From assembly GCF_017348835.2 (NCBI RefSeq), contig NZ_CP071375.1: 64,000 bases of DNA. The stretch is one strand, 5' to 3'. Numbering within the stretch: position 1 is the first letter of the stretch; every line of letters starts with the position of its first letter. The notes below the pieces were generated by a model. That model was not told where the DNA came from. It ran no database searches and worked only from the letters and a program-made list of their open reading frames with translations. Below, piece by piece: positions 8,549 through 45,013 of this stretch. Both the position numbers and the translations under genes were made by a program. This DNA is from Escherichia coli. GTDB taxonomy: Bacteria; Pseudomonadota; Gammaproteobacteria; Enterobacterales; Enterobacteriaceae.

Positions 8549-8566
8549 TTCTTACGCCTGTAGGAT
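8549..8566. promoter_or_regulatory. EvgA-box-like inverted repeat in the emrK-evgA divergent region (TTCTTACGCCTGTAGGAT)
   Basis: Matches the EvgA consensus (18-bp inverted repeat of TTCYTACA) at 7/8 plus 7/8 positions. Confidence 0.5.
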
Positions 8567-8790
8567 TAGTGAGAAGACTTATAGTGCTAATGTGAAACTA
8601 TAAATCATCGGTACAATCCCTGATTTTATTGTTGACATTTCATATATGCCGACTATTTATATGGTATACTTGTCGAATTATCTTAAAGGAAGCTCAAATT
8701 TTCTTATTTTTATTGAGAAAATGAGATGATGCCTTATGTCTGTATTACTACAGGGAGAAGGGAGATGCTTCATTGCAAAGGGAATAATCT

Positions 8791-9405
8791 ATGAACGCAA
8801 TAATTATTGATGACCATCCTCTTGCTATCGCAGCAATTCGTAATTTATTGATCAAAAACGATATTGAAATCTTAGCAGAGTTGACTGAAGGCGGAAGTGC
8901 CGTTCAGCGGGTGGAAACACTTAAGCCTGATATCGTCATCATTGATGTCGATATCCCCGGAGTTAACGGTATCCAGGTGTTAGAAACGCTGAGGAAGCGC
9001 CAATATAGCGGAATTATTATTATCGTCTCCGCTAAAAATGACCATTTTTACGGGAAACATTGTGCTGATGCTGGCGCTAATGGTTTCGTGAGTAAAAAAG
9101 AAGGCATGAACAATATCATTGCGGCTATTGAAGCTGCAAAAAATGGCTACTGCTATTTCCCCTTCTCTCTCAACCGGTTTGTTGGAAGTTTAACGTCCGA
9201 CCAGCAAAAACTCGACTCCTTATCGAAACAAGAAATTAGTGTCATGCGCTATATTCTTGATGGCAAGGATAATAATGACATTGCTGAAAAAATGTTCATC
9301 AGCAACAAAACTGTCAGCACTTATAAAAGTCGCCTGATGGAAAAATTAGAATGTAAATCACTGATGGATCTTTACACATTCGCACAACGTAACAAAATCG
9401 GCTAA
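8791..9405 (+). CDS. evgA: Response regulator (NarL/FixJ family), acid and drug resistance regulator
   Basis: 204-aa ORF with receiver domain and C-terminal LuxR-type HTH; followed by evgS 4 nt downstream. Confidence 0.95.
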   Translation: MNAIIIDDHPLAIAAIRNLLIKNDIEILAELTEGGSAVQRVETLKPDIVIIDVDIPGVNGIQVLETLRKRQYSGIIIIVSAKNDHFYGKHCADAGANGFVSKKEGMNNIIAAIEAAKNGYCYFPFSLNRFVGSLTSDQQKLDSLSKQEISVMRYILDGKDNNDIAEKMFISNKTVSTYKSRLMEKLECKSLMDLYTFAQRNKIG

Positions 9406-9409
9406 CCAC

Positions 9410-12400
9410 ATGAAGTTTTTACCCTATATTTTTCTTCTCTGTTGTGGTCTTTGGTCGACCATAAGTTTCGCAGACGAAGATTACATCGAATATCGTGGCA
9501 TCAGTAGTAACAACCGTGTCACACTTGATCCACTACGTCTGAGCAACAAGGAATTACGTTGGTTAGCGAGCAAAAAAAATCTTGTGATTGCAGTACACAA
9601 GTCCCAAACGGCTACGTTGTTGCATACCGATTCGCAGCAACGGGTTCGTGGTATTAATGCTGATTATTTAAATCTTTTAAAAAGAGCGTTAAATATCAAA
9701 CTAACACTCCGGGAATACGCCGATCATCAAAAAGCAATGGACGCGCTGGAAGAAGGTGAAGTCGATATAGTGTTATCACATTTAGTTGCTTCGCCGCCTC
9801 TTAATGATGACATTGCTGCAACCAAACCACTGATAATTACCTTTCCGGCGCTCGTCACCACCCTTCACGATTCAATGCGACCGCTTACCTCATCAAAACC
9901 AGTAAATATTGCTCGAGTAGCAAATTATCCCCCTGACGAGGTAATTCATCAATCATTTCCAAAAGCAACAATTATCTCTTTTACAAATTTATATCAGGCA
10001 TTAGCATCCGTCTCAGCCGGACAGAATGATTACTTTATTGGTAGTAACATCATTACCAGCAGTATGATTTCCCGCTATTTCACTCACTCCTTAAATGTAG
10101 TGAAATATTATAACTCACCGCGTCAATATAATTTTTTCTTGACCAGAAAAGAATCTGTCGTTCTTAATGAAGTACTCAATCGATTTGTTGATGCTTTGAC
10201 AAATGAAGTTCGCTATGAAGTATCACAAAATTGGCTTGATACAGGAAACCTGGCCTTTCTGAACAAACCATTAGAACTCACTGAACATGAAAAACAATGG
10301 ATTAAGCAGCATCCCGATTTAAAGGTGCTGGAAAATCCTTACTCCCCTCCCTATTCTATGACGGATGAAAATGGCTCGGTTCGGGGCGTTATGGGGGATA
10401 TTCTTAATATTATTACTTTGCAAACAGGTTTAAATTTTTCTCCGATCACCGTTTCACACAATATCCATGCTGGAACACAGCTGAATCCCGGCGGATGGGA
10501 TATATTACCCGGTGCTATTTATAGTGAAGATAGAGAAAATAATGTTTTATTTGCTGAAGCCTTCATAACAACGCCTTACGTTTTTGTCATGCAAAAAGCG
10601 CCTGACAGTGAACAAACATTAAAAAAAGGAATGAAAGTTGCCATTCCATATTATTATGAGCTGCATTCGCAATTAAAAGAGATGTATCCGGAGGTAGAGT
10701 GGATAAAAGTCGATAACGCCAGCGCTGCATTTCACAAGGTCAAGGAAGGTGAACTTGATGCTCTGGTCGCGACACAGTTAAATTCGCGTTACATGATCGA
10801 CCATTACTATCCTAATGAACTGTATCATTTTCTTATTCCCGGCGTTCCGAATGCATCGCTTTCGTTCGCTTTTCCTCGCGGAGAACCGGAACTTAAGGAT
10901 ATTATTAATAAAGCACTGAATGCAATCCCCCCAAGCGAAGTTCTGCGCCTGACCGAAAAATGGATTAAAATGCCCAATGTGACCATTGACACATGGGACC
11001 TCTATAGCGAGCAATTTTATATTGTTACGACATTATCCGTTTTATTAGTTGGCAGTAGCCTTTTATGGGGATTCTACCTGTTACGCTCAGTTCGTCGTCG
11101 TAAAGTCATTCAGGGTGATTTAGAAAACCAAATATCATTCCGGAAAGCGCTCTCGGACTCCTTACCGAATCCAACTTATGTTGTAAACTGGCAAGGTAAT
11201 GTCATTAGTCACAATAGTGCATTTGAACATTATTTCACTGCTGATTACTACAAAAATGCAATGTTACCATTAGAAAACAGTGACTCACCCTTTAAAGATG
11301 TTTTTTCTAATGCGCATGAAGTCACAGCAGAAACGAAAGAAAATCGAACAATATACACACAGGTATTTGAAATTGATAATGGCATCGAGAAAAGATGCAT
11401 TAATCACTGGCATACATTATGCAATCTGCCAGCCAGCGATCATGCTGTTTATATTTGTGGTTGGCAAGATATTACCGAGACGCGTGATTTAATTCATGCA
11501 CTCGAAGTAGAGAGAAATAAAGCGATCAATGCAACTGTCGCAAAAAGTCAGTTTCTGGCAACAATGAGTCACGAAATAAGAACACCAATAAGCTCCATTA
11601 TGGGCTTCCTGGAACTTCTGTCGGGTTCTGGTCTTAGCAAGGAGCAACGGGTGGAGGCGATTTCACTTGCCTACACCACCGGACAATCACTCCTCGGCTT
11701 AATTGGTGAAATCCTTGATGTCGACAAAATTGAATCGGGTAACTATCAACTTCAACCACAATGGGTCGATATCCCTACTTTAGTCCAGAACACTTGTTAC
11801 TCTTTCGGTGCGATTGCTGCAAGCAAATCGATCGCATTAAGTTGCAGCAGTACGTTTCCTGAACATTACCTGGTTAAGATCGACCCTCAGGCGTTTAAGC
11901 AGGTCTTATCAAATTTACTGAGTAATGCTCTCAAATTTACCACCGAGGGGGCAGTAAAAATTACGACCTCCCTGGTTCACATTGATGACAACCACGCTGT
12001 AATCAAAATGACGATTATGGATTCTGGAAGTGGATTATCGCAGGAAGAACAACAACAACTGTTTAAACGCTATAGCCAAACAAGTGCAGGTCGTCAGCAA
12101 ACAGGTTCTGGTTTAGGCTTAATGATCTGCAAAGAATTAATTAAAAACATGCAGGGTGATTTGTCATTAGAAAGTCATCCAGGCATAGGAACAACATTTA
12201 CGATCACAATCCCGGTAGAAATTATCCAACAAGTGGCGACTGTCGAGGCAAAAGCAGAACAACCCATCACACTACCTGAAAAGTTGAGCATATTAATCGC
12301 GGATGATCATCCGACCAACAGGCTATTACTCAAACGCCAGCTAAATCTATTAGGATATGATGTTGATGAAGCCACTGATGGTGTGCAAGCGCTACACAAA

Positions 12401-13003
12401 GTCAGTATGCAACATTATGATCTGCTTATTACTGACGTTAATATGCCGAATATGGATGGTTTTGAGTTGACTCGCAAACTCCGTGAGCAAAATTCTTCCT
12501 TACCCATCTGGGGGCTTACAGCCAACGCACAGGCTAACGAACGTGAAAAAGGGTTAAATTGCGGCATGAACTTATGTTTGTTCAAACCGTTGACCCTGGA
12601 TGTACTGAAAACACATTTAAGTCAGTTACACCAGGTTGCGCATATTGCACCTCAGTATCGCCACCTTGATATCGAAGCCCTGAAAAATAATACGGCGAAC
12701 GATCTACAACTGATGCAGGAGATTCTCATGACTTTCCAGCATGAAACGCATAAAGATCTACCCGCTGCGTTTCATGCACTAGAAGCTGGCGATAACAGAA
12801 CTTTCCATCAATGTATTCATCGCATCCACGGTGCGGCTAACATCCTGAATTTGCAAAAGTTGATTAATATTAGCCATCAGTTAGAAATAACACCTGTTTC
12901 AGATGACAGTAAGCCTGAAATTCTTCAGTTGCTGAACTCTGTAAAAGAACACATTGCAGAGCTGGACCAGGAGATTGCTGTTTTCTGTCAACAAAATAAC
13001 TAA
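9410..13003 (+). CDS. evgS: Hybrid sensor histidine kinase (periplasmic binding domains, HisKA-HATPase, receiver, HPt)
   Basis: 1197-aa ORF with a signal sequence, two periplasmic solute-binding-like domains, MSHEIRTP H-box, receiver and HPt domains. Confidence 0.95.
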   Translation: MKFLPYIFLLCCGLWSTISFADEDYIEYRGISSNNRVTLDPLRLSNKELRWLASKKNLVIAVHKSQTATLLHTDSQQRVRGINADYLNLLKRALNIKLTLREYADHQKAMDALEEGEVDIVLSHLVASPPLNDDIAATKPLIITFPALVTTLHDSMRPLTSSKPVNIARVANYPPDEVIHQSFPKATIISFTNLYQALASVSAGQNDYFIGSNIITSSMISRYFTHSLNVVKYYNSPRQYNFFLTRKESVVLNEVLNRFVDALTNEVRYEVSQNWLDTGNLAFLNKPLELTEHEKQWIKQHPDLKVLENPYSPPYSMTDENGSVRGVMGDILNIITLQTGLNFSPITVSHNIHAGTQLNPGGWDILPGAIYSEDRENNVLFAEAFITTPYVFVMQKAPDSEQTLKKGMKVAIPYYYELHSQLKEMYPEVEWIKVDNASAAFHKVKEGELDALVATQLNSRYMIDHYYPNELYHFLIPGVPNASLSFAFPRGEPELKDIINKALNAIPPSEVLRLTEKWIKMPNVTIDTWDLYSEQFYIVTTLSVLLVGSSLLWGFYLLRSVRRRKVIQGDLENQISFRKALSDSLPNPTYVVNWQGNVISHNSAFEHYFTADYYKNAMLPLENSDSPFKDVFSNAHEVTAETKENRTIYTQVFEIDNGIEKRCINHWHTLCNLPASDHAVYICGWQDITETRDLIHALEVERNKAINATVAKSQFLATMSHEIRTPISSIMGFLELLSGSGLSKEQRVEAISLAYTTGQSLLGLIGEILDVDKIESGNYQLQPQWVDIPTLVQNTCYSFGAIAASKSIALSCSSTFPEHYLVKIDPQAFKQVLSNLLSNALKFTTEGAVKITTSLVHIDDNHAVIKMTIMDSGSGLSQEEQQQLFKRYSQTSAGRQQTGSGLGLMICKELIKNMQGDLSLESHPGIGTTFTITIPVEIIQQVATVEAKAEQPITLPEKLSILIADDHPTNRLLLKRQLNLLGYDVDEATDGVQALHKVSMQHYDLLITDVNMPNMDGFELTRKLREQNSSLPIWGLTANAQANEREKGLNCGMNLCLFKPLTLDVLKTHLSQLHQVAHIAPQYRHLDIEALKNNTANDLQLMQEILMTFQHETHKDLPAAFHALEAGDNRTFHQCIHRIHGAANILNLQKLINISHQLEITPVSDDSKPEILQLLNSVKEHIAELDQEIAVFCQQNN

Positions 13004-13058: not shown

Positions 13059-14204
13059 TTATGATGAGAACTCCTGGCGAATTTGTTCCCCATGCTGGTC
13101 GAGCATTGCCGCTCCCGGCATAACATGCGGGTCCGCGCAGCCGCTGATTTTTATCGGATTACCTGGCATCATTATTCCTCCGGCTTCAATCAACATATTT
13201 CTCGCCTGAGTTTGTGGCAAATTAATGGCCTCAGCCACACTTAATAACGGCGCGACGGGCACACCAACTTCATGTATTTTGGCTAACCAAACTTCAGCTG
13301 CCTGCGTTTTTAACGTCCGCTCAATATATTGTTTAAGAATAGCCTGGTTTTGTACGCGTAAAATATTGCTGCTAAATCTGGGATCATTAACCAGTTCCGT
13401 AAGCTCCAGTGCCTGGCATAACGCAGAGAAAAGCTTGTCATTACCACAACAAATCGTAATCGGCTTATCCTGAGTATCGAAAACATCAAAAGGTGCCATG
13501 TAGGGGTGGCGATTTCCCAAACGTTGTGGTGACTTCCCAGTCGCGATATATGCCATCAGCCCGTGCTCCAGAAAACTCAGAGTAGCATCAAACATCGCTA
13601 TATCGACATGCGCCCCTCTCTGGCTCTTTTCGCGGCCATAAAGTGCACTCACTATTCCGCTGAATAAATAGACACCGCCGCATAGATCCGCAAGAGAGGT
13701 ACCAACACGCACTGGCGGAGCATCAGGGTACCCTGTTTCCATCATTATCCCGCTCATTGCCTGAATGATGGTATCGTAGGCAGGAGCATCTTTTAGCGGA
13801 CCGGTATGTCCGAAACCTGACGATGAAGCATATATGAGGCGCGGGTTGATTTCTTGTAACCTTTCCCATGAAAACCCTAGTTTTTCCATTGTACCTGGGC
13901 GAAAATTCTCAGCTAATACATCAGCTTGTTTAAGCATATTTATAAATATACTTTTATCGTGATCATTCTTTAAATCAAGAACCACACTCTCTTTGCCATG
14001 ATTAATAAAACTGTAATAGAGTGACTGTCCATCCACATAGGGACCAAATGTGCGGGTATCATCACCATGGCCCGGCGGCTCAACTTTAATTACCCTTGCG
14101 CCCATATTACAAAGAAGTTGAGTTCCGAAAGGTCCATTAAGGACATGTGTCATATCGATAACTAATAAGCCTTCAAACGGCCCTTTGCTTTCATTATTTG
14201 TCAT
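13059..14204 (-). CDS. yfdE: Acetyl-CoA:oxalate CoA-transferase (family III CoA-transferase)
   Basis: ORF 13059-14243 trimmed to the internal ATG (MTNNESKGPFEGLLVIDMTHVLNGP), 381 aa; CaiB/BaiF family signature. Confidence 0.9.
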   Translation of the reverse strand: MTNNESKGPFEGLLVIDMTHVLNGPFGTQLLCNMGARVIKVEPPGHGDDTRTFGPYVDGQSLYYSFINHGKESVVLDLKNDHDKSIFINMLKQADVLAENFRPGTMEKLGFSWERLQEINPRLIYASSSGFGHTGPLKDAPAYDTIIQAMSGIMMETGYPDAPPVRVGTSLADLCGGVYLFSGIVSALYGREKSQRGAHVDIAMFDATLSFLEHGLMAYIATGKSPQRLGNRHPYMAPFDVFDTQDKPITICCGNDKLFSALCQALELTELVNDPRFSSNILRVQNQAILKQYIERTLKTQAAEVWLAKIHEVGVPVAPLLSVAEAINLPQTQARNMLIEAGGIMMPGNPIKISGCADPHVMPGAAMLDQHGEQIRQEFSS

Positions 14205-14277
14205 TTGCTTATGCCTTGAAAAAAGCCGAAGGTGAAAAGACACTTCGGCATTTATGTAAAATCAATAACATGATTAA

Positions 14278-15222
14278 TTATGAAACCAGTCGACTGACAT
14301 AAATCCACAAGGGAGCCGTGACGACAAAGCCCAGTACGCTCACAGCCAATGACGCTGTACCAGTGCGGGTGTAGACATTAAACCGGCTGGCAATAATGAT
14401 TCCGGAGAATGCCGGCGGTAATGCGCCTGCCAGTACCATCATCTGCAAATGTTCGCGGTTCAAATGACATGCCATACCAACGAGAAGCAGCGCCAGTGGC
14501 ATCAGAATCAGCTTCAGGAAGGTGTTATAAGCAATTTCGGCACTGAACTCGAATTTATGTGCAGCCAGAGTCAACCCCGCAGCGAATACCGCTACCCCTG
14601 AGTTAGCCTTCGCAATCAGATTAAAGGTTGGGTCCCATGCTGCCGGAATTTTTACCCCAACCAACACCAGGATCGTTGCCAGAACAGGTGCCCATACAAC
14701 TGGCTCCTTTGCCGCAGAAATTAATGCGCTCAGATTACTATTCTTCTTACCATCCGCTCCTGAGGAAGGATTCAGCAAATACAGACCAATAGGAATAGTA
14801 ATTGCGTTAACAATAATAGAAATAATTGCTACCACTAAACCTGTTGATACGGAATCACCATAAATAGGATCGAGAACTGCAAACCCCAGGAATCCAATGG
14901 TAGGTGAACCTGCAATTAATGCACATACAGCTGCTTCTGCATGAGTACGTTTAAAAAATTTGTAGCAACCGAACCAGGAGAAAAAGAAACATCCGACAAT
15001 AACCACAAGTGATACAAGGGTCAGACGAGTGTCCGCAAAAATCATTTCCCTGTTTGCCCGGGTAATAGATACAAATAGAGCCGCAGGAAGCGCGTAGTTT
15101 AATACCAGTTTATTAAATGCCCGAGCTTGATCTTCTGAAAATGTTTCTCGTCTGCCGCTAAAATAACCCAACAGCATGATTACGATAATAGGCAATAAAT
15201 CGCCAATAAAAAATGTTAGCAT
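14278..15222 (-). CDS. yfdV: AEC-family transporter
   Basis: 314-aa polytopic membrane ORF located between yfdE and oxc. Confidence 0.9.
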
Positions 15223-15291
15223 AATAGTATTTCCGATAAGGGTCCCCTCACCATCGCATAATGAGTTGGCAAGAGGAGACGATGTCAGTAT

Positions 15292-16986
15292 TTAATTACC
15301 AGCGACTTGTTTTGGGTTCAGTTTGGTAATATGGCCACTTTCAGTTCCTGCTGCAGGGTCGATGACCATATTAATAATGGTCGGTTTGCGCGACTGAATA
15401 CCGGTGGTTAAAGCATGACGAAGTTCATCTGTCGTGGTGACGTTATAGCCAACGCCACGAAACGCATCCATTAATTTGTCATACCTTGCATGGTGCAACA
15501 GATCTGTTGGTGATGGTGCACCAGCGCCACTGAGATCAACACCGTCTCCTCTGTAGATGCCGCCATTATTAAAAATAACGATCGTTACCGGCAGGTTATA
15601 TCGACAAATCGTTTCAATTTCCATCCCACTGAAACCAAAAGCACTATCACCTTCAATGGCGACAACCGGAGAACCAGAAGTCACGCTAGCACCGATGGCA
15701 TAGCCCATACCGATGCCCATGACACCCCAGGTACCACAATCCAGACGACGACGTGGTTTATACATATCAATAATATTTCGTGCATTATCCAGGGTATTTG
15801 CCCCTTCATTAACTAAATAAATATCCTGGTTCTCGCGCAATACATCGCGCACAGCACTTAATGCATTAAAGTAATTTAATGGTTGGGTATCTGTACTTAA
15901 TTTTTCATGCATTTTTTGTGCATTTTGCTGCTTGTGGATATTTAAAATATCGCGCCATACCAGTGGAGTCGTAAATGTGTTTTGTTTCAGTTCTGCCAGC
16001 ATACCTTGCATACTGGATGCAATATCACCAACGACTGGCACAGCAATGGGGCGGTTGCTGTCAATTTCCTGCGGTTCAATATCCAGTTGAATAAACTGTG
16101 TATCTGCCGCCCATCCTTTTTTACCGTGTGCCAGTAACCAATTCAGTCGTGCACCAACAAGCATGACAACGTCAGCATTTGCCAGGGCAAACGAACGCGC
16201 AGCTGCCGCAGAAAGTGGATGCGTATCTTCGAGGATCCCTTTCGCCATAGACATTGGCAGGAATGGAATCTGGGCACTTTCAATAAATTCACGAAGCTGT
16301 TCATCAGCTTGTGAATACGCCGCGCCTTTGCCAAGGATAACTAATGGTCGTTCAGCTTTTGCTAAAAGCGAAATTGCGCTAGCGACTGACTTCGGGCATG
16401 GCAATAATGCTGGCGACGGATTTTCAACTTTTACAATCGTGGTTAACGCTTCGTCTTTTTCCATCGTCGCGGCCAGGACATTTGCTGGCAAATCAAGATA
16501 AACTCCGCCAGGGCGACCCGATATCGAGACCCGGATAGCGCGTGCCAATGCAATGCCAAGATCCTGCGGCTGATTAACGCGAAATGCTGCTTTGGCATAC
16601 GGTTTTGCCGCATTCATTTGGTCCAGCTCTTCATAATCACCTTGCTGTAGGTCGACGATCGCGCGGTCGCTGGAGCCGCTAATCATGATCATCGGAAAAC
16701 CATTTACCGTTGCGTTGGCCAATGCGGTCAAACCATTGAGGAATCCTGGCGCAGACACTGTCAGGCAGATCCCTGGTTTTTGGGTAAGAAAACCGCTTGC
16801 CGCAGCGGCATAGCCTGCCGACTGCTCATGACGAAAACCAATATAACGAATGCCTTCCGCCTGGGCATGGCGCGCCATATCCGTCACAGGAATACCTACA
16901 ACACCATAAATAGTGTCAATATTATTCTGTTTTAATGCTTCAACGATGATATGCATACCATCTGTCATTTGAAGTTGATCTGACAT
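15292..16986 (-). CDS. oxc: Oxalyl-CoA decarboxylase (ThDP-dependent)
   Basis: 564-aa ORF with ThDP-enzyme architecture. Confidence 0.93.
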   Translation of the reverse strand: MSDQLQMTDGMHIIVEALKQNNIDTIYGVVGIPVTDMARHAQAEGIRYIGFRHEQSAGYAAAASGFLTQKPGICLTVSAPGFLNGLTALANATVNGFPMIMISGSSDRAIVDLQQGDYEELDQMNAAKPYAKAAFRVNQPQDLGIALARAIRVSISGRPGGVYLDLPANVLAATMEKDEALTTIVKVENPSPALLPCPKSVASAISLLAKAERPLVILGKGAAYSQADEQLREFIESAQIPFLPMSMAKGILEDTHPLSAAAARSFALANADVVMLVGARLNWLLAHGKKGWAADTQFIQLDIEPQEIDSNRPIAVPVVGDIASSMQGMLAELKQNTFTTPLVWRDILNIHKQQNAQKMHEKLSTDTQPLNYFNALSAVRDVLRENQDIYLVNEGANTLDNARNIIDMYKPRRRLDCGTWGVMGIGMGYAIGASVTSGSPVVAIEGDSAFGFSGMEIETICRYNLPVTIVIFNNGGIYRGDGVDLSGAGAPSPTDLLHHARYDKLMDAFRGVGYNVTTTDELRHALTTGIQSRKPTIINMVIDPAAGTESGHITKLNPKQVAGN

Positions 16987-17039
16987 GATTAATAACCTCG
17001 AAATTTTTATAAATTGGGAGCCAGAAGCCCCCGTTAATA

Positions 17040-18290
17040 TCAGATGGCGTGGTTTTGCTTCATTGCAGCAATTTCATCGTCGCTATAACCCAGCTCCTGC
17101 AATACAGCAGCGGTATGTTCACCTAATAGCGGCGCAGCTTTAATATCTGGCGTAAAGGCAGAGAATTTCATTGGACAACCAACTGTCAGATATTTTCCAC
17201 GCAACGGTTGTTCCACTTCGACAACACTGCCACTTTGGCGTAAAGAGGGATCAAGTGAAATTTCTTTCATACTTAAAACCGGTGCACAAGGAATATCAAA
17301 CTGAGTCAAATAGGCCACCGCTTCATGTTTATCAATAGTGACAGTGTATTTTTCGATTTCAGCAAAAATATCGAAAATATGTGGCTGTCGGGCATGGGCT
17401 GTACTGTATGCCGGATCGGTAATCCAATCTGGTTTGCCGATGGCTTTACAGGTGTTTTCCCAGTTTTGCTCCTGAATAGTGAAATAAATATAGGCGTTAG
17501 GATCTGTTTCCCAGCCTTTACATTTCAGGATCCAGCCAGGCTGACCGCCACCACCCGCATTACCACCGCGGGGAACTGCATCACCAAATGTGCCATTCGG
17601 ATACTGCGGGTATTCTTCCAGATAACCCAATTTATCGAGACGCTGCTGGTCGCGTAATTTCACGCGGCAAAGGTTCAATACGGCATCCTGCATTGACATG
17701 GTGACTCGTTGCCCACGCCCCGTTTTTTCTCGATGCAGCAAAGCAGCAAGTAAACCGATCAGTAAATGCATTCCGGTGTTGCTGTCACCCAACGCTGCAG
17801 CGCTTACCAGCGGCGGACCGTCCCAAAAACCCGTAGTAGATGCCGCGCCACCCGCTGCCTGAGCAACGTTTTCATAGGCTTTTACATTCACATAAGGCGA
17901 ACACTCATCAAACCCTTTGATCGAACCAAAAATCAGACGTGGATTGATTTCTTGAATATGCTCCCAAGTGAAGCCCATATGATCAATGGCCCCTGGATGA
18001 AAGTTCTCGACTAAGATATCAGCTTCGCGGATCAGCTTTTCCATTACCTCTTTGCCTTCCGCTGTTTTGGTATTTAATTCAATAGAACGTTTGTTACTGT
18101 TAAGAATGGTGAAGTAAAGCGCATCGATATCAGGAATATCTCGCAGCTGGTGACGCGTTACGTCACCAACGCCGGGGCGTTCAATTTTAATGACGTCAGC
18201 GCCAAACCAGGCCAGCATTTGAGTACAAGATGGGCCAGATTGCACACCGGTGAAATCGAGAACTTTAATTCCTTGAAGTGGAGTTGACAT
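17040..18290 (-). CDS. frc: Formyl-CoA:oxalate CoA-transferase
   Basis: 416-aa ORF of family III CoA-transferase (paralogue of yfdE), starting [20 protein letters not shown]. Confidence 0.93.
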
Positions 18291-18540
18291 AGCAATACCT
18301 ATTAGTTAATTAAATATGTGTTAATTTAGCGTTTATTTAAGGCATAACGCCTCTATAAATAATCCGCAAAATATCGTCGTAGCTGCACTCGATATTTTCA
18401 CATTCCTGTATCAAGTACTGAAAATCATTTCATCGCTACTTCCAATTCCTTTCTGCATGGTAAGTAGTGAGGACGAAAAGAAGAATATGATAAATATTGG
18501 TTCGTGGTAATCAGAGAGAGTCGCGACATTTGTGATGTTA

Positions 18541-18558
18541 TTCTTACAACTGTAAGAA
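18541..18558. promoter_or_regulatory. Perfect EvgA-box-like palindrome TTCTTACAACTGTAAGAA upstream of frc
   Basis: 18-bp perfect inverted repeat matching TTCYTACA-N2-TGTARGAA, about 250 bp upstream of the frc start in the yfdX-frc intergenic region. Confidence 0.55.
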
Positions 18559-18801
18559 GCGCCGGTGATTTACAAGTAAGGGTATGATTACGCTTTTTAA
18601 AGCGTACCATAAAATATAACATATTAAATGATTTGTGATGACACGGGATTATTGCGGTTTACTTTGAGGAATATAAAATGCGAGTTTATAGAACCGCGAG
18701 CGCCAAATAATTTTATGACCACAACCTGTCGTATTGTGGTCATAAAAAATTGTCGGCTGGAGGGAGTTAAATCCTTTACCTCAATATACTGCCTGTCAGC
18801 A

Positions 18802-19437
18802 TTAGTTCACAAACAGTGCTTCGCTATCGACGATGATTCCATCTTCCGCACCTTTAAGCGCCAGGTTTGCCTCGTAGTATTGCTTTTTATCAAGCAGTTT
18901 CTGCGCATCAGCAAGTGCATTACGAGTCTGTTTAAGCGGCATCAGATATTGGTTTTCCATTACGCCAACACCGGCCAGGCGAAGCTCTTCCATTGCGCCC
19001 TTTTTATCCCCTTTCGCCATTTTTTCATTGGCAATTTTTATCGCGGCTTCTTTTTCGGGTGTTGCTACATAACTCTCAGAAATTCCGACAGATGCATTAA
19101 TGACAATATATTGGTCATCATTGAGATTGGTCTTTTTACCTGGCTTAGCGAACTTTGCCCATTCGGTACTGTCATCTGACAACAAAGCGGAAGCTTCATT
19201 GGTCAGTTCTTTTGCCTTTTCCGGATCGCCATGAAACAGAGCCAGGCGCGCTACCTGCACGTCACGCATCGCATATAAACCTTGTTCAGAGATACGCTCT
19301 GCTGCCGCTGCCGTTTTCTGGGTTTGCTGAACTTGCTGAGTTTGCTTTTGTGCCGCTACCGGAGCATTATCAGCAGCCCATACAGTTGAAGATGCCAGAA
19401 TTGCTGTGACCATCGTGGCCATAATTAAACGTTTCAT
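18802..19437 (-). CDS. yfdX: YfdX-family periplasmic protein (EvgA regulon)
   Basis: 211-aa ORF with a signal peptide ([21 protein letters not shown]). Confidence 0.9.
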
Positions 19438-19533: not shown

Positions 19534-19590
19534 TATCTTACAGTTGTAGTTATTATCGCAAGAAGTATTTTAGTCTTACAATTGTAGGAA
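19534..19590. promoter_or_regulatory. Two adjacent EvgA-box-like inverted repeats upstream of yfdX (ATCTTACAGTTGTAGTTA and GTCTTACAATTGTAGGAA)
   Basis: Both match the TTCYTACA-N2-TGTARGAA pattern (13-15 of 16 positions) and lie 100-150 bp upstream of the yfdX start. Confidence 0.5.
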
Positions 19591-41726: not shown

Positions 41727-41802
<76 letters not shown>

Positions 41803-41841
41803 ACGATGCGTTTACGTACCAAATTTGCTGGGTGCAAAATT

Positions 41842-41917
<76 letters not shown>

Positions 41918-44615: not shown

Positions 44616-44691
44616 GGGTGATTAGCTCAGCTGGGAGAGCACCTCCCTTACAAGGAGGGGGTCGGCGGTTCGATCCCGTCATCACCCACCA
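44616..44691 (+). tRNA. valU: tRNA-Val (UAC)
   Basis: GGGTGATTAGCTCAGCTGGGAGAGCACCTCCCTTACAAGGAGGGGGTCGGCGGTTCGATCCCGTCATCACCCACCA. Confidence 0.95.
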
Positions 44692-44735
44692 ACTACTTTA
44701 TGTAGTCTCCGCCGTGTAGCAAGAAATTGAGAAGT

Positions 44736-44811
44736 GGGTGATTAGCTCAGCTGGGAGAGCACCTCCCTTACAAGGAGGGGGTCGGCGGTTCGATCCCGTC
44801 ATCACCCACCA
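44736..44811 (+). tRNA. valX: tRNA-Val (UAC), copy 2
   Basis: Identical 76-nt repeat of valU. Confidence 0.95.
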
Positions 44812-44857
44812 CTTTCTCACCAGCTAAATTTCTTGTAAAAATGTGAAGTACCGAAGT

Positions 44858-44933
44858 GGGTGATTAGCTCAGCTGGGAGAGCACCTCCCTTACAAGGAGG
44901 GGGTCGGCGGTTCGATCCCGTCATCACCCACCA
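44858..44933 (+). tRNA. valY: tRNA-Val (UAC), copy 3
   Basis: Identical 76-nt repeat of valU. Confidence 0.95.
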
Positions 44934-44937
44934 CTTC

Positions 44938-45013
44938 GGGTCGTTAGCTCAGTTGGTAGAGCAGTTGACTTTTAATCAATTGGTCGCAGGTTCGAATCCT
45001 GCACGACCCACCA
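44938..45013 (+). tRNA. lysV: tRNA-Lys (UUU)
   Basis: GGGTCGTTAGCTCAGTTGGTAGAGCAGTTGACTTTTAATCAATTGGTCGCAGGTTCGAATCCTGCACGACCCACCA. Confidence 0.95.

Follow-up and report, generated by a model that had tools for sequence, protein, structure and literature searches.

The closest described counterparts of the site analyzed here are the EvgA binding sites of Escherichia coli K-12. In 2003, Masuda and Church reportedly recognized, for seven operons that EvgA regulates directly, an 18-bp inverted repeat in six upstream regions, and gel shifts with EvgA are said to have been obtained on six such upstream regions. The box upstream of frc is the frc member of the EvgA regulon as laid out in that work, which comprises ydeP, safA(b1500)-ydeO, yegR, yfdX, frc(yfdW), and emrK/evgA. 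Set against these K-12 sites, the present locus has the same 18-mer and the same flanking genes, and its spacing from box to -10-like hexamer is that of the other five. Nothing of substance differs, and the frc box alone matches every specified position of the consensus.

Two related systems provide a broader frame. BvgA of Bordetella is a homologue of EvgA, and the promoters it activates, fhaB for example, reportedly pair a NarL/FixJ-type regulator with a high-affinity inverted repeat placed well upstream of the -35. An in-register TCnnATT element at frc (-41 to -34) would fit a BvgA-like cooperative extension from such a repeat toward the -35; however, the organism and the half-site sequence are different, and the proximal element of frc scores poorly as a half-site. 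The 7-2-7 sites of NarL and NarP, which belong to the same protein family, resemble the EvgA box in having two inverted half-sites around a 2-bp spacer. In contrast, the EvgA half-sites span 8 bp, are of a different sequence, and answer to acid rather than to nitrate or nitrite.

The EvgA-bound repeat upstream of frc has already been published, and an EvgA-dependent frc promoter is the published view, in which yfdX and yfdWUVE are listed as two separate units that are induced and have a repeat each (PMC3720670). In an evgS-constitutive mutant, frc (yfdW) displays the highest fold increase, and the group of genes induced most strongly in evgS-constitutive strains includes both frc/yfdW and oxc/yfdU; EvgA sites were found in that study at already known EvgA-regulated genes only (PMC4283999). 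Increases of 4.3-4.9 log2 under acid stress are listed for yfdX, frc, yfdV, and oxc (PMC10746267). A search of full-text literature for the literal sequence of the box yielded nothing useful.

Here, we consider the frc box within a 64,000-nucleotide stretch of E. coli DNA, the window. The box is real and functional and, as a textbook member of the EvgA regulon, already known. We assign a probability of about 0.9 to the reading that it is a high-affinity EvgA dimer site, which activates a promoter belonging to frc-oxc-yfdV-yfdE itself when EvgS is activated. A sequence-only reading of the window had proposed just such an internal EvgA-dependent promoter in addition to that of yfdX, and this proposal is supported by the published view, by conservation, by a hairpin behind yfdX, by the spacing to a -10-like hexamer, and by the induction data. 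The box ties the acid sensor EvgS/EvgA directly to the adjoining genes for proton-consuming oxalyl-CoA decarboxylation, which contribute to oxalate-induced acid tolerance. Both this interpretation and the EvgA gel shift that had been suggested as a check are in the literature. Since the link between EvgA and frc was published in 2002-2003 and has been carried in later papers, confirming it adds no new biology. What is mildly new is the invariance of the site at population scale, a specific prediction of promoter and start, and the fixed geometry of EvgA-box promoters, an architecture that may have gone undescribed so far.

The EvgA box and its genomic setting

The locus runs in the order emrY, emrK, evgA, evgS, yfdE, yfdV, oxc, frc, yfdX, and ypdI (Table 1), and the unit attributed to the box, frc-oxc-yfdV-yfdE, spans 13059-18290 on the minus strand. 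Over 24,511 positions the window differs from E. coli PE164 at one, with the same gene annotation, and the yfdX-frc spacers of the two strains are 100% identical. Upstream of evgA, the 9-codon evgL frame (K-12 b4781) is present at 8765-8794, its stop overlapping the evgA start (ATGA). Elsewhere in the window, and unrelated to the box, tRNA gene clusters occupy 41730-41917 and 44616-45010, comprising two minus-strand and four plus-strand genes.

Table 1. Coordinates of the EvgA boxes, genes, and predicted transcription signals in the window.
Feature	Position	Strand	Remarks
EvgA box, divergent emrK/evgA promoters	8549-8566	.	2 mismatches
evgA	8791-9405	plus	cognate regulator; intact, no internal stops
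evgS	9410-13003	plus	cognate regulator gene; intact, no internal stops
yfdE	13059-14204	minus	intact
yfdV	14278-15222	minus	intact
oxc	15292-16986	minus	intact
frc	17040-18290	minus	intact
Predicted frc 5' leader	18291-18475	minus	~185 nt; start placed at ~18475 from the predicted -10
Predicted -10, TATTCT	18487-18482	minus	54-59 nt after box
Predicted -35, TTACCA	18510-18505	minus	4/6 matches to TTGACA; 17 bp upstream of predicted -10
Conserved promoter-proximal element, TCTGATT	18509-18515	minus	26-32 nt after box; overlaps start of predicted -35
EvgA box, TTCTTACAACTGTAAGAA	18541-18558	minus, towards frc	0 mismatches to TTCYTACANNTGTARGAA
Terminator-like hairpin	18711-18747	minus	directly 3' of yfdX; 15-pair stem, then UUAUUUGG
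yfdX	18802-19437	minus	upstream gene with its own EvgA-dependent promoter
Two EvgA boxes 5' of yfdX	19535-19590	minus	distal 19573-19590 (1 mismatch); proximal 19535-19552 (3 mismatches)

The box lies inside the 511-bp spacer between yfdX and frc, 250 nt 5' of the frc ATG, which is where the sequence-only reading had located it. Read toward frc, it is TTCTTACA-GT-TGTAAGAA, with the half-site TTCTTACA at 18551-18558 and again, inverted, at 18541-18548; the arms are complementary at 8/8 positions across a 2-bp gap. This layout fits the consensus form TTCYTACA-NN-TGTARGAA, and all 16 specified positions match, so that the claimed agreement with inverted TTCYTACA half-sites holds in full. The accompanying description of a perfect 18-bp palindrome needs qualifying. 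The inverted repeat is indeed perfect (8+2+8), but a strict palindrome would equal its own reverse complement, and the 18-mer does not: its central AC becomes GT on the opposite strand. In K-12 MG1655, an identical 18-mer occupies NC_000913.3 2,493,506-2,493,523.

A probable yfdX terminator and a predicted frc promoter

Directly behind yfdX, the minus strand can form a stable hairpin (-25.4 kcal/mol, z = -6.6). One A:T pair of its stem has become G:C in strain 702/18, a compensatory change, and its U-tract is imperfect. The hairpin is probably the yfdX terminator, and from its sequence and position it would separate yfdX from the frc transcription unit, although read-through from yfdX into that unit is possible. 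With EvgA boxes of its own and a hairpin at its end, yfdX would leave the oxalate genes as a separate EvgA-controlled unit.

A consensus scan for sigma-70 promoters returned no site just downstream of the box, where the predicted hexamers match at 8/12 positions and fall below the threshold, as expected for an activator-dependent promoter. Given that null result, the promoter was predicted by comparison with other EvgA targets. Across 8 aligned Escherichia sequences, TTACC of the -35 and the whole -10 hexamer are invariant, and the 5' part of the 17-bp spacer between them is free to vary. In K-12 coordinates the predicted frc start falls at NC_000913.3 ~2,493,440. No mapped frc transcription start is given in the reviews and CsrA papers checked, and for this reason the exact position of the promoter is a prediction.

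The box-anchored comparison used six K-12 promoters. A scan of K-12 recovered six box regions (emrK/evgA, frc, yfdX, safA, ydeP, and yegR), among which the frc box is the sole perfect one, the others having 1-3 mismatches. MAFFT misregistered the upstream regions of frc and yfdX, and the promoters of frc, safA, ydeP, yegR, and emrK, together with that of the proximal yfdX box, were instead anchored on their boxes. In all six, a TAnnnT hexamer starts 53 or 54 nt after the box (TATTCT, TATGAT, TATATT, TAATTT, TATTAT, and TAAATT); in 5000 circular shifts, the best count never rose above 4. The distance from box centre to -10 hexamer is accordingly narrow across EvgA-box promoters, at 62.5-63.5 bp, which corresponds to a box centre at about -74.5. 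Further columns are invariant after the box, namely CA at +9/+10, TC at +26/+27, and T at +31. Five of the six promoters also agree on A at +30, and five on T at +32. The six are only partly independent: shared sequence extends past the box in two pairs, frc with yfdX and safA with ydeP, and each pair may thus derive from a duplicated promoter.

These columns outline a promoter-proximal element, TCTGATT at frc (18515-18509), that starts 42 bp after the first half-site; the TCnnATT element, at -41 to -34, is four helical turns from that half-site. The summed half-site score peaks at offset 25, and one of 3000 circular-shift controls reached this peak. TCTGATT could represent a third, weak half-site for EvgA. 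Because the half-site scores are low in absolute terms, its role is put forward as a suggestion, and a polymerase contact made through it is speculative for the same reason. The rigid common architecture raises the idea that EvgA acts from one face of the helix and reaches the -35 through this weak proximal half-site, in the manner of BvgA; we hold that idea tentatively and consider it rather unlikely.

The tandem boxes of yfdX add an observation of their own. They lie 38 bp apart from centre to centre (window 19535-19590; K-12 L082:14501-14556), and it is the poor, proximal box that holds the common register, the good, distal one being out of register. A 22-nt gap separates the proximal box from CTCTCTGATT, as at frc, and the -10 TATGAT stands at +54.

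Taken together with the literature, from which EvgA binding and EvgA/EvgS-dependent induction are drawn, a sequence of events can be proposed. Mild acid would activate EvgS, and EvgA, a NarL/FixJ-type response regulator encoded 9 kb away in the window, would in its phosphorylated, dimeric form bind the two inverted half-sites. Bound EvgA would then turn on a weak minus-strand promoter of the sigma-70 type some 60 bp downstream. If the predicted hexamers are used and transcription starts near 18475, the box centre would sit near -74.5, and the transcript would consist of a leader of ~185 nt followed by frc-oxc-yfdV-yfdE, whose products would run the proton-consuming oxalyl-CoA decarboxylation cycle. 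Contact with RNA polymerase might be made with the alpha C-terminal domain from -74.5; alternatively, by analogy with BvgA, cooperative extension to the weak half-site at -41 to -34 might carry EvgA closer. The hexamers, the start site, and the contact between EvgA and polymerase are all predicted from the DNA.

Several candidate features of the spacer were considered and rejected. Compared with a divergent Escherichia genome (SCPM-O-B-8794), 18411-18481 is 90% identical and 18291-18410 is 78% identical, and the more conserved first ~70 nt of the predicted leader contain a 15-codon ORF (18458-18411). This ORF was discarded, as was a 65-aa ORF running across the box (18425-18622, minus strand): both lack a Shine-Dalgarno sequence, both have lost the stop, and changes in both, counted against the divergent Escherichia, are mostly non-synonymous. 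A structured leader RNA was likewise set aside, since no Rfam family matched in the yfdX-frc spacer and the fold of the predicted leader improves just slightly on those of its shuffles (z-score -2.2).

The alternative that fares best is a single operon, in which frc-oxc-yfdV-yfdE would be carried only on mRNA from the yfdX promoter and the internal box would bind EvgA without initiation. Such a box might loop to the yfdX boxes 1 kb away, or might oppose silencing of AT-rich DNA, and the G+C content of the spacer (36%) would suit the latter. The cluster is often named the 'yfdXWUVE operon', and because several papers still use that name, co-transcription from the yfdX promoter deserves consideration as a possibility. 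The similar acid induction of yfdX and frc and the weakness of the hexamers downstream of the box point the same way. We nevertheless judge this reading improbable: the stretch from yfdX to the box contains a hairpin of -25.4 kcal/mol with a U-rich tail, five other EvgA-box promoters place a -10-like hexamer at the same distance from their boxes, and the literature treats yfdX and yfdWUVE as two induced units with a repeat each.

The symmetric box and the opposite strand

A symmetric site need not act in one direction only. Like the emrK/evgA box, the frc box could also drive a plus-strand transcript, which would here be antisense to yfdX, and in the window strain a plus-strand TAAAAT does start 52 nt after the box. 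However, the same hexamer is TAAAAC in K-12 and four other aligned genomes and is hence not conserved, and the plus-strand side has neither the common CA (+9/10) nor TC..ATT (+26-32). Of the whole spacer, moreover, this flank is conserved the least: 27% of the positions vary in the 152 bp upstream of the box, as against 21% overall in the same 8 sequences. An antisense promoter was rejected because its sole -10 candidate is not conserved, and we see very little chance that one operates beside the predicted frc promoter.

The emrK/evgA box itself reads ATCCTACAGGCGTAAGAA toward emrK in the window strain and in K-12, with 2 mismatches. In the divergent Escherichia (L002:19729-19746) it is a perfect consensus, TTCCTACAGGTGTAAGAA.

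Specificity and conservation of the box

The symmetry of the box is by itself unremarkable and proves little, for the window holds three perfect 8-2-8 inverted repeats where about one is expected (64000 x 0.25^8). Its match to the EvgA consensus is another matter. With the consensus fixed beforehand and then scanned over the 64-kb window, the frc box is the single perfect match to TTCYTACANNTGTARGAA, against an expectation of ~6.3e-5. Relaxing the scan to at most 3 mismatches gives 4 matches where 0.54 are expected, a number that no shuffle out of 100 attained. All four sit in three intergenic regions around evgAS: between emrK and evgA, between yfdX and frc, and upstream of yfdX. The match is far beyond chance.

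The site is also held almost without exception across the species. The 30-mer formed by the box and the next 12 bp has a match of 28 or more exact bases in 5403 of 5426 complete E. coli genomes, and the yfdX-frc spacer is present in 5410 of them, mostly at 95-99% identity to the window; 16 to 23 genomes are without the spacer or without the box. Relative to K-12, the spacer of the window differs at few positions, all of them outside the box. The 8 aligned Escherichia sequences vary at one of the 18 box positions, 18549, which belongs to the 2-bp gap. A more distant comparison is with SCPM-O-B-8794, a divergent Escherichia deposited as E. coli, which has the same gene order and an EvgS of 91% identity: there the spacer is 83% identical, both half-sites are unchanged, and the only difference within the box is GT to GC.

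At 18589-18606, with 31 bp between it and the EvgA box on the upstream side, stands a second perfect 8-2-8 inverted repeat, TACGCTTT-TT-AAAGCGTA. Among the 7 other aligned genomes deposited as E. coli, 6 keep it intact; S65EC, 21368, and the divergent Escherichia carry altered versions, in which one G:C to A:T double change preserves part of the stem.

Could the box serve a different protein? Acid-network regulators of the LuxR/NarL type other than EvgA (GadE, RcsB, or NarL/NarP, for example) likewise recognize short inverted repeats and take part in acid resistance, and one of them might be the main binder. Against this stand the match at all 16 specified positions of the EvgA consensus, the coincidence of the remaining boxes in the window and in K-12 with exactly the published EvgA targets, and the assignment of binding to EvgA in the literature; we regard the idea as effectively excluded. 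Still less credible, and effectively excluded too, is a functionless palindrome arisen by chance in AT-rich intergenic DNA, for although perfect 8-2-8 repeats turn up about once per 64 kb and another lies 31 bp away, only 6e-5 perfect consensus matches are expected and the box is kept in 5403 genomes and in the divergent Escherichia, while the neighboring repeat decays.

In the loci compared, the distribution of the EvgA box follows that of its regulator: half-sites are intact where evgAS is present, and the box is absent where evgAS is not nearby. Providencia stuartii and Moellerella wisconsensis have frc loci with no box, no yfdX, and no evgAS nearby. These loci come from a genome scan based on Frc, which gave one Escherichia locus among the matches listed. 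The next closest Frc after Escherichia among the matches listed is that of Morganellaceae, at 86% identity, in a cluster that reads frc-oxc-yfdV-frc2, without yfdX, yfdE, or evgAS. The second frc copy of Providencia matches in pieces and may be disrupted.

Within E. coli itself, strain 1218KP (NZ_CM173878.1) offers a natural exception. An IS1 element lies 118 bp upstream of its frc, the frc-adjacent 57 bp of the spacer are left, and unrelated genes take the place of the EvgA box and yfdX. With both replaced, 1218KP is expected to have no EvgA control over frc.
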